UHGV virus genome: UHGV-0246887
Source: a virus
DNA length: 44,763 nt
Strand: one strand, 5' to 3'
The position numbers and the translations under genes were made by a program. Under the pieces are notes generated by a model. It was not told where the DNA came from. It saw nothing but the letters and a program-made list of their open reading frames with translations, and made no database searches. Of the stretch, positions 37,366-37,536 are shown in pieces (the first letter of the stretch is position 1; every line of letters starts with the position of its first letter).

Positions 37366-37406
37366 AAAAAAAAAAAAAAAGCGCCGAGGCAAAATGCGAC
37401 GGCGCT
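37366..37406 (-). terminator. Strong minus-strand terminator: hairpin followed by U15
   Basis: Plus strand A15 followed by GCGCCG...CGGCGC; on the minus strand this is a hairpin followed by 15 T. Confidence 0.55.
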
Positions 37407-37476
37407 AACCAATAAGAGACAATGAGACAGGAATTATTATTACACGCGTGCGCGCCCGTTTCAATATCCAAAGGAT

Positions 37477-37505
37477 TTGACACCTTGTGGTTTTAGGTGT
37501 AGTTT
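37477..37505 (+). promoter_or_regulatory. Sigma70-like promoter for plus-strand HTH/primase operon
   Basis: TTGACA-N17-TAGTTT about 30 nt before ATG 37537. Confidence 0.45.
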
Positions 37506-37536
37506 CATTGGTCATTAACCAACTGAGGGCAGAGCA

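Follow-up and report, generated by a model that had tools for sequence, protein, structure and literature searches.

The divergent early region and its promoters

The DNA analysed here, a stretch of 44,763 bases referred to below as the window, is a nearly complete genome of a Dhillonvirus, an HK578-like siphophage of E. coli. Dhillonviruses are common and often isolated E. coli phages, present in the BASEL collection and considered as therapy candidates. Around the terminator described below, 1.6 kb of sequence match 176 phage records, with 97% identity in the case of Escherichia phage Gluttony_ev152. Plus-strand genes occupy 29 to 24283 and minus-strand genes 24310 to 37128; from 37537 onwards the genes are again on the plus strand. 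Because of this layout, the terminator sits in the single divergent intergenic region of the genome (37129-37536), and minus-strand genes are absent for about 31 kb upstream of it. A search for tRNA and tmRNA genes found none.

The first leftward gene (36610..37128, minus strand) encodes an acidic protein of 172 amino acids. Its AUG is located at 37128..37126 with the SD sequence GGAGA 5' of it, and the initiation region defined from the ORF and the SD (37126..37149, minus strand) reads UUAACCAAU-C-GGAGAUAUACC-AUG. The first rightward gene, with its AUG at 37537 on the plus strand, encodes a 109-amino-acid HTH protein (Pfam HTH_23, E = 2.5e-7) and is followed by the gene of a 754-amino-acid primase/helicase. 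The 5' UTR and initiation region of the HTH gene (37512..37539, plus strand) contain UUAACCAAC at 37515-37523 and the SD GAGGG at 37525-37529.

The original prediction placed the terminator between divergent sigma70-like promoters, and both of them are present. The leftward early promoter, P_L (37325..37354, minus strand; TTGACA-18-TATTAT), agrees with the consensus in 11 of 12 positions, which makes it the best sigma70 match in the window, and its predicted start is G37317 or C37318. The rightward early promoter, P_R (37477..37505, plus strand), was read by eye from the sequence. It combines a perfect -35 (TTGACA, 37477-37482), a 17-bp spacer and a weak -10 (TAGTTT, 37500-37505), with a predicted start near 37511-37512, and it fell below the scan threshold because its -10 matches in 3 of 6 positions only. 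Among the 16 unique relatives the P_R -35 is invariant and 'GGTGTAGTTTC' is conserved; the spacer varies in 10 of 17 columns and the 5' UTR in 17 of 25.

A third promoter-like site, the candidate sRNA promoter P_s, is found on the minus strand at 37436..37464. It consists of TTGAAA (37464..37459), a 17-bp spacer containing the palindrome CACGCGTG, and AATAAT (37441..37436) with a TG upstream (TGtAATAAT), that is, an extended -10. This TTGAAA-17-AATAAT promoter had been proposed beforehand; it is present, with 10 of 12 consensus positions, but the coordinates given for it were 1-3 nt off and are corrected here to 37464..37436. The -35 hexamers of P_s and P_R are 12 bp apart. Sigma70 matches of at least 10/12 occur three times in the 44.8-kb window, and two of them are P_s and P_L, separated by 110 bp and both on the minus strand; under a Markov null, 0.55 sites per genome are expected that reach at least 11/12 or carry the TG.

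The terminator and the candidate small RNA

The A15 tract and the GC hairpin with a stem of 7 bp reported for this region could be located exactly. A15 occupies 37366-37380 and is followed by GCGCCG (37381-37386), a 13-nt loop and CGGCGC (37400-37405), with A37380 and T37406 forming the seventh stem pair. On the minus strand, the hairpin (37380..37406) comprises the 7-bp stem, a 2x2 internal loop, a 3-bp GCA/UGC helix and a UUU loop, and the U/T-run of 15 (37366..37380) comes directly 3' of it as the tail, covering at the same time positions -62..-48 of P_L. A15 is the sole homopolymer of at least 8 in the window. The hairpin RNA folds with -16.7 kcal/mol, compared to -7.9 +/- 2.2 kcal/mol in shuffles (z = -4.0 to -4.3), and none of 200 shuffles was as stable. 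A simple terminator scan missed this hairpin because its loop limit is 8 nt and the loop here has 13 nt. On the plus strand there is no U-run after the hairpin, and therefore the terminator is unidirectional.

The 17 relatives fetched first, from GenBank and IMG/VR, all present an A-run (8-13 long) followed by a hairpin. The stems change on both sides, with the paired variants GCGCCG/CGGCGC, UCCCCG/CGGGGA (L014 and L083) and UCCCCAG/CUGGGGA (L017), and the 8 variable columns out of 27 in the hairpin are mostly compensatory among the 16 unique Dhillonvirus sequences. In the distant loci L034-L043, with a primase identity of 37-45%, an A8-10 run and an unrelated GC hairpin are located about 100 nt upstream of the primase. 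There, the terminator follows a cro-like HTH gene rather than preceding an HTH gene as it does here, and in L038 and L039 the element is bidirectional. Structure and polarity are thus kept and sequence is not, which is the signature of a terminator. Moreover, the GenBank record vB_Eco_CS16 (LR999870) annotates a terminator feature over the matching stretch. As far as comparison of sequences can tell, the terminator is real, conserved and once annotated already. The prediction of an intrinsic minus-strand terminator with a U15 tail agrees with the position of the run, the stable fold and the compensatory stem changes, and the hairpin and U-run most likely work as a Rho-independent terminator for that strand.

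A transcript from P_s is predicted to start near 37428 and end in the U-run, with a length of about 55-63 nt. Its 5' arm (37407..37428, minus strand, GUCUCAUUGUCUCUUAUUGGUU) has 22 nt and is pyrimidine-rich, and the 5' 22-23 nt are unpaired in both the MFE and the centroid folds. The variable columns, counted in the 16 unique Dhillonvirus sequences, are distributed unevenly along this unit: 1/6 in the P_s -35, 4/17 in the spacer, 0/6 in the -10, 6/7 in the discriminator between the -10 and the predicted start (37429..37435, minus strand), which has conserved sequence on both flanks, and 1/22 in the arm. Conserved hexamers, a variable discriminator and an invariant arm form the pattern predicted for a real promoter with a functional transcript. 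The P_s spacer is conserved too, and therefore some DNA-level constraint acts here as well. In L017, the most divergent Dhillonvirus-like contig, TTGAAA is lost, TTGCGC-17-TATTAT is found in the matching place and CUCAUUGUCU is retained at the RNA start. The RNA of 50-60 nt suggested originally is supported by the compensatory stems, the conserved P_s hexamers, the variable discriminator and the invariant arm. It is probable, and well supported by this comparative evidence, that the terminator ends a dedicated sRNA of about 55 nt transcribed from P_s.

This RNA had been described as antisense, a description that had to be abandoned in its usual sense. The candidate sRNA is not cis-antisense because plus-strand transcription across it is absent: no plus-strand gene or promoter-like site lies over or upstream of 37366-37428, and P_R starts downstream, at about 37512. 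A cis-antisense RNA of about 165 nt could be produced instead from another minus-strand site, TTAACA-16-TACATT (37567..37540), with its start within the first HTH codons (near 37533) and its end at the same terminator, and it would overlap the P_R 5' UTR and SD. The site itself is promoter-like in 9 of 12 positions, and a cis-antisense RNA would also result in L043 from its best minus-strand promoter-like site, which is located past the primase start. However, sites of 9/12 appear at chance frequency (4 found versus 3.4 expected in 5 kb), the -10 becomes GATATT in many relatives and is under coding constraint, and the transcript would need to traverse P_s. Little credence is consequently given to this longer RNA.

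The terminator could also mark the end of a small protein gene. A minus-strand ORF of 36 amino acids (37515..37405) stops at the foot of the hairpin and is annotated as the hypothetical protein bas16_0049 in the GeorgBuechner record. Nevertheless, it has no SD and shows paired or single frameshifts in L003, L006, L007, L008, L013, L014 and L017, so this ORF, frameshifted or broken in relatives, was rejected as a gene and a small protein is highly improbable. A plus-strand ORF of 24 amino acids (37422-37496), truncated or frameshifted in relatives, was rejected as well.

The Rfam/infernal scan proposed for this RNA placed the candidate sRNA in no family at the gathering threshold. No family was matched in the whole window at gathering thresholds, and in 37050-37600 at E up to 10 the only matches were terminator-driven, with 11-20 bits, far below those thresholds. 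A literature search on Dhillonvirus and HK578 promoters, terminators and transcriptomes found no transcript map or regulatory RNA.

Complementarity to the early initiation regions

One copy of a plus-strand direct repeat, TAACCAATAAGAGACAATGAG, is inside the sRNA gene, and the other, TAACCAACTGAGGGCAGAGCAATGAA, forms the HTH initiation region. The leftward gene has TTAACCAATCGGAGATATACCATG, on the minus strand, as its initiation region. Because of the plus-strand repeat and TTAACCAATCGGAGATATACCATG, the arm is complementary to both flanking initiation regions. With the left gene it would form 8 bp, one mismatch and 7 bp over the SD; the right gene offers 7 bp, and additional pairs reach as far as its start codon. 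The calculated duplex energies are -19.1 kcal/mol for the right initiation region, ranking 2nd among 67 crude gene starts, and -17.2 kcal/mol for the left one, ranking 7th among the same 67. In tests designed post hoc, once the match had been noticed, 400 dinucleotide shuffles of the arm gave p = 0.015 for the right side (0.010-0.015 over all shuffle tests), p = 0.007 for the left side and p = 0.0025 for the sum.

The complementarity is also present in other Dhillonviruses. In phage SP1 (L085), 16 contiguous arm pairs lie over the right-hand SD (p = 0.002), and L084 differs in its right-hand gene, with the complementarity found instead at AGACAAUGAG, on the start codon (10 bp as counted by eye). 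In all, five Dhillonvirus variants other than the window gave p = 0.002-0.06 in the post hoc test of arm and initiation region. Concerning the distant relatives, 8 of 10 loci, corresponding to about 4 of 6 sequence families, show complementarity between the primase initiation region and the minus-strand sequence beside the terminator (p <=0.027). In the L034/L035 group, an RNA is predicted from TTGCAT-16-GATAAT, again with a variable discriminator; the minus-strand promoter of the L035-type phages is a poor match to the consensus (-35 3/6), and the scan did not report it. A hairpin would form at the 5' end of this RNA, followed by a CU-rich spacer and the terminator, and the hairpin loop, UUGAGCGGUU, is perfectly complementary to AACCGCUCAA, a sequence located just 5' of the primase SD. 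A recurring architecture built from unrelated sequences provides what appears to be the best argument for RNA-RNA pairing.

Scanning the genome for duplexes with the arm revealed sites as good or better elsewhere, down to -23.2 kcal/mol. The best of them (8901-8945, 13606-13660, 12056-12110 and 42281-42330) reach -21 to -23 kcal/mol and are G-U-rich. The arm allows such strong off-target duplexes through its richness in pyrimidines and its tolerance of G-U pairs. Raw duplex energy singles out no target, and therefore the test was limited to initiation regions with shuffle controls.

The repeated plus-strand motifs, TAACCAAY here and AACCGCTCAA in the L035-type phages, could be protein operators flanking P_R instead, and a related DNA motif, GCAACCAAT, is found in about 16 copies genome-wide at intergenic sites. 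The whole region might then act at the DNA level, as an element that is bent or unwinds, as a cluster of operators or as part of an origin, with TAACCAAY and AACCGCTCAA as protein sites and no role for RNA. This would fit with the enrichment of AACCAAY in the genome (27 copies versus 11.4 expected), with the direct repeats that flank the rightward promoter in both phage groups, and with two GenBank records linearised within the A-run. On the other hand, the stems change freely yet pair and the run is always on the side of the minus-strand U tail, as is characteristic of a terminator. Furthermore, the shift of the complementarity along the arm in L084 is not predicted by an operator model, and the iteron-like repeats typical of an origin are elsewhere, at 40142-40420. 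A purely DNA-level role is scarcely probable for these reasons.

Regarding all these data, the explanation that seems on balance the likely one, although with limited confidence, is that the terminator ends an sRNA made from P_s whose arm pairs with early-gene initiation regions, and that it has a second role at P_L. Host sigma70 RNA polymerase would start at P_s, at about 37428, and stop in the U-run, and the product would be a non-coding RNA of about 55-60 nt composed of the 22-nt unstructured arm, the terminator hairpin and the U tail. The main job of the terminator would thus be to end a dedicated, very short transcription unit. We infer that the arm pairs in trans with the initiation regions of the first genes of both divergent early operons, which encode the 109-amino-acid HTH regulator on the right and the 172-amino-acid acidic protein on the left. 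Such duplexes would mask the SD sequences or end next to them, and early-gene translation could be damped or timed in this way. Repression of the neighbouring initiation regions by the sRNA is plausible from the sequences, although this part of the proposal is tentative. In addition, the terminator would stop P_s transcripts before they reach P_L and its 5'-terminal structured leader, and the T-run together with GAAATTAG (-62 to -40) lies in the position of an UP element of P_L and may function as one.

The anatomy of P_L is compatible with this second role. Its -35 begins 12 bp past the U-run, and the T-run at -62..-48 and GAAATTAG at -47..-40 are in an UP-like register, as read from the sequence against the UP-element consensus. 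Between the T-run and the -35, a proximal UP-like segment rich in A/T (37355..37365, minus strand, GAAATTAGTTG) varies in 1 of 11 columns. L017 keeps it as AAAATTCTTG before TTGACG, and a 10-bp insertion, equivalent to one helical turn, separates it from the T-run. UP elements of strong sigma70 promoters of the rrnB P1 type are A/T-rich tracts at about -40 to -60. Similarly, the T-run here ends at about -47 and is followed by AAA(T/A)T and a consensus -35, in the register of rrnB P1, but in this case the T-run doubles as the tail of the terminator and its length is 8-15 among relatives.

Insulation of the early operon had been offered from the beginning as an alternative to the sRNA. The terminator is indeed directly upstream of P_L, but the two readings are not exclusive of each other. 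If insulation were the only function, the terminator would shield P_L and the leader from minus-strand transcription coming from P_s or from spurious antisense starts in the rightward genes. The T-run would still be an UP element and the P_s transcript a functionless by-product, with P_s perhaps acting as a competitor of the back-to-back P_R. The location 12 bp upstream of the P_L -35, with the T-run at -62..-48, and the short distance between the P_s and P_R -35 hexamers are in agreement with this, as is the order in L058, where a terminator and then a promoter also come before the same leader RNA. However, insulation leaves unexplained why the arm, beside a variable discriminator, is the most conserved segment (1/22 variable), and why complementarity between arm and initiation regions recurs with unrelated sequences in distant relatives. 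Besides, in the L035-type phages the terminator is not adjacent to P_L. An insulator with no RNA function is possible but doubtful.

The candidate sRNA with trans pairing can be compared with known small RNAs. Two short antisense RNAs of phages, P22 sar and lambda oop, each have a promoter and an intrinsic terminator of their own; they are encoded in cis and are complementary over their full length to an overlapping mRNA. The candidate sRNA would resemble them in its size of about 55-80 nt, its constitutive sigma70 promoter in a phage control region, its end formed by a hairpin and U-run, and its proposed pairing where translation of an adjacent regulatory gene begins. In contrast to sar and oop, it has no overlapping opposite transcript, and its complementarity is partial (7-16 bp), in trans and created by a plus-strand direct repeat of the target initiation region. 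The phage that carries it is virulent, sequence similarity to these RNAs is absent and Rfam gives no match. Trans-acting enterobacterial sRNAs, such as the prophage-encoded DicF, combine an unstructured 5' seed with the module to which Hfq usually binds, a Rho-independent terminator ending in a long U tail. The candidate sRNA also has an unstructured, anti-SD-like 5' seed, a terminator and a long U tail, but there is no homology between them and the best Rfam scores are driven by the terminator. The candidate sRNA is predicted from its sequence to be a further short phage regulatory RNA with its own promoter and terminator, unusual in that a duplicated initiation region would be targeted in trans.

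If this is correct, the sRNA would be antisense to a duplicated copy of the ribosome-binding region of its targets, with no overlapping gene. For a virulent phage that is wholly reliant on the host polymerase, a conserved sRNA acting against the ribosome-binding sites of the first genes of the early operons could serve as a simple timer or as a control of dose. The distant relatives suggest a general design in which the target initiation region is duplicated and the copy is transcribed backwards into a terminator. This rule of duplication and reversal could help to find phage sRNAs elsewhere.

A structured leader RNA beside P_L

The leftward operon starts with a structured 5'-terminal leader RNA of about 160 nt (37158..37317, minus strand). 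Its closing helix, P1, is formed by GUCGAC (37317..37312) with GCCGAC (37163..37158). Further parts are a small hairpin, a helix GGRGC/GCYaCC that closes a junction, a long irregular covarying arm capped by a GNRA loop, and an invariant core hairpin, ACGCAGGGGCYKGAUCGWAGUGUCWGGAUUCCCAACCGU, which includes GGAUUCCCAACCGUGA. The structure, with 8 helices and a three-way junction, was built by hand and converted into a covariance model (R1) with realignment, since RNAalifold on a MAFFT alignment recovered only part of it.

R1 finds 32 full-length copies, among them the one in the window (37157-37323, 158.8 bits) and that of PHB17 (137 bits). In the alignment of these 32 sequences, 94% of cells pair and 16 pairs change on both sides; in controls with the partners slid by 1-3 columns, the values are 32-45% and 2-6. 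These counts lean somewhat toward the structure because the alignment was fitted to R1. The covariation score is 0.325, compared to at most 0.064 in the slid controls, and 0 of 500 shuffles reach 0.325. The thermodynamic stability of the leader is unremarkable (z = +0.67).

BLAST of the intergenic region in distant mode gave short matches of 77-94% identity in unrelated siphophages: Hanrivervirus slyngel, Murrayvirus Lumpael, Changchunvirus PHB17, tunus, swan01 and Klebsiella phages. In three fetched loci the match is intergenic and on the coding strand, and pattern scans of IMG/VR, metagenomes and genomes added further copies. A pattern match in Streptomyces (L081) was discarded as chance, as it shows no similarity outside a 20-mer. 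The leader is present in at least four phage genera (Dhillonvirus, Hanrivervirus, Murrayvirus and Changchunvirus) and in uncultured phages, and it is absent in some Dhillonviruses that carry other leaders (L006, L008, L014 and L017). In each phage it starts 2-5 nt past the predicted start of a sigma70 promoter (-10 TATAGT, CATAAT or TATTAT), and the SD and AUG of differing genes come 20-40 nt after it. The leader, including variants from other phages, matches no Rfam family, and a literature search for its conserved sequence strings gave nothing relevant. With covariation at the level of accepted RNA families and no entry in Rfam, the leader represents a new class of structured RNA, and its position points to a predicted function in the control of transcription elongation.

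The leader may be a cis-acting antitermination leader working like HK022 put, although this function is a guess. It is suggested by the location at the 5' end after an early promoter, by the portability between genes and by the terminator-like hairpins inside the leftward operon. HK022 put RNA is a cis-acting antitermination leader of about 70 nt with two stem-loops, and putL sits just downstream of the HK022 P_L promoter (PMC9378689). The leader described here is likewise a structured RNA at the 5' end of an early transcript, directly after P_L, but it has about 160 nt, a closing helix, a three-way junction and a long covarying arm. A relationship with put was rejected, as R1 finds nothing in the HK022 genome (E up to 10) and size and fold differ.

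It is a rather unlikely proposal as a whole that the region encodes two undescribed RNAs, namely a trans-repressing sRNA, with a design recurring at distant primase operons, and a put-like antiterminating leader module. Were it true, the leader would be a portable 'promoter plus leader' module, unrelated to put, that makes host RNA polymerase resistant to terminators.

Two terminator-like hairpins are found inside the leftward operon, at 36601..36582, after gene 1, and at 29900..29884. The former (36582..36601, minus strand) has 7 GC pairs and the tail UCUUUUUAGA, comes directly after the first leftward gene and is relevant solely to the antitermination reading of the leader RNA.

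Leader RNA and first gene of the leftward operon

The leftward operon begins with a 5'-terminal leader RNA (37158-37317, minus strand) that is structured and about 160 nt long. Its covariation is strong: 94% of the alignment cells are paired versus 32-45% in slid controls, and both sides have changed in 16 pairs. The RNA is common to the Dhillonvirus window, Hanrivervirus, Murrayvirus, Changchunvirus and uncultured siphophages, and further copies lie, among others, in the loci L044 (816-984), L045 (854-1021), L046 (906-1076) and L058 (9065-9231) of other phages. In every case a sigma70-like promoter lies immediately 5' of the leader, and the downstream genes differ. 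The Rfam search gave no match for this RNA, and a kinship with the put RNA of HK022 was considered and rejected, the two being unrelated. The leader may act in antitermination.

The first leftward gene encodes an acidic protein of 172 aa with an internal tandem duplication, in which ...AEDEKPAKAKKAPAKGK.KK... appears twice (36700-37000, minus strand); the duplication is annotated as a repeat_region in the record of phage welsh. The Pfam search with this protein returned no match. Some GenBank records start the gene at an upstream AUG at 37308, giving a 232-aa version (36610-37308, minus strand) that would cross the leader RNA. This start has no usable SD and overlaps the covarying RNA. Moreover, a 36-aa ORF across the region of the candidate sRNA (37405-37515, minus strand) is annotated in some records and is broken in relatives. 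Both the 36-aa ORF and the 232-aa version look like misannotations.

Surroundings of the minus-strand terminator

An equivalent of the minus-strand terminator is found in the distant relatives L034-L043, whose primase identity is 37-45%. There it lies near positions 2364-2410 of each locus, with a cro-like HTH gene on one side and the promoter of the primase on the other. In the L034/L035 group this promoter is flanked by the 10-nt direct repeat AACCGCTCAA.

The A-run of the terminator has 15 residues in the window and 8-13 in other genomes, and sequencing error may affect these lengths. SECphi18 and ZCEC10 each have a GenBank record that starts or ends within this run, at about 37374. This probably reflects an assembly break at the homopolymer and not an end of the physical genome.

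The candidate sRNA promoter has a spacer containing the perfect palindrome CACGCGTG (37443-37450), which is followed by GCGCGC and kept in relatives. This palindrome may serve as an operator, for instance for the adjacent HTH protein.

Repeated DNA elements in the genome

The intergenic motif (T)GCAACCAAT occurs at about 16 sites in the window, such as 6244, 6258, 22347, 27166, 27183, 37332, 40153, 40207, 40242, 40526, 40614, 40645, 41202, 43984 and the palindromic pair at 25493/25502. A -10-like hexamer often follows shortly downstream, and the spacer of the leftward early promoter P_L holds one copy. AACCAAY was counted 27 times in the window versus 11.4 expected (0/100 shuffles). The motif probably represents either a site for a phage regulator or a promoter-class element.

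Furthermore, a cluster of iteron-like GCGGGACA(A) repeats is present in two copies, one at 11983-12105 within the structural region and the other at 40292-40412, just 3' of the primase/helicase gene. The latter is adjoined by three (AAATTTTGCGCG)CATTGGTTGCC repeats, and the stretch 40130-40260 also belongs here; this is a candidate replication origin region.
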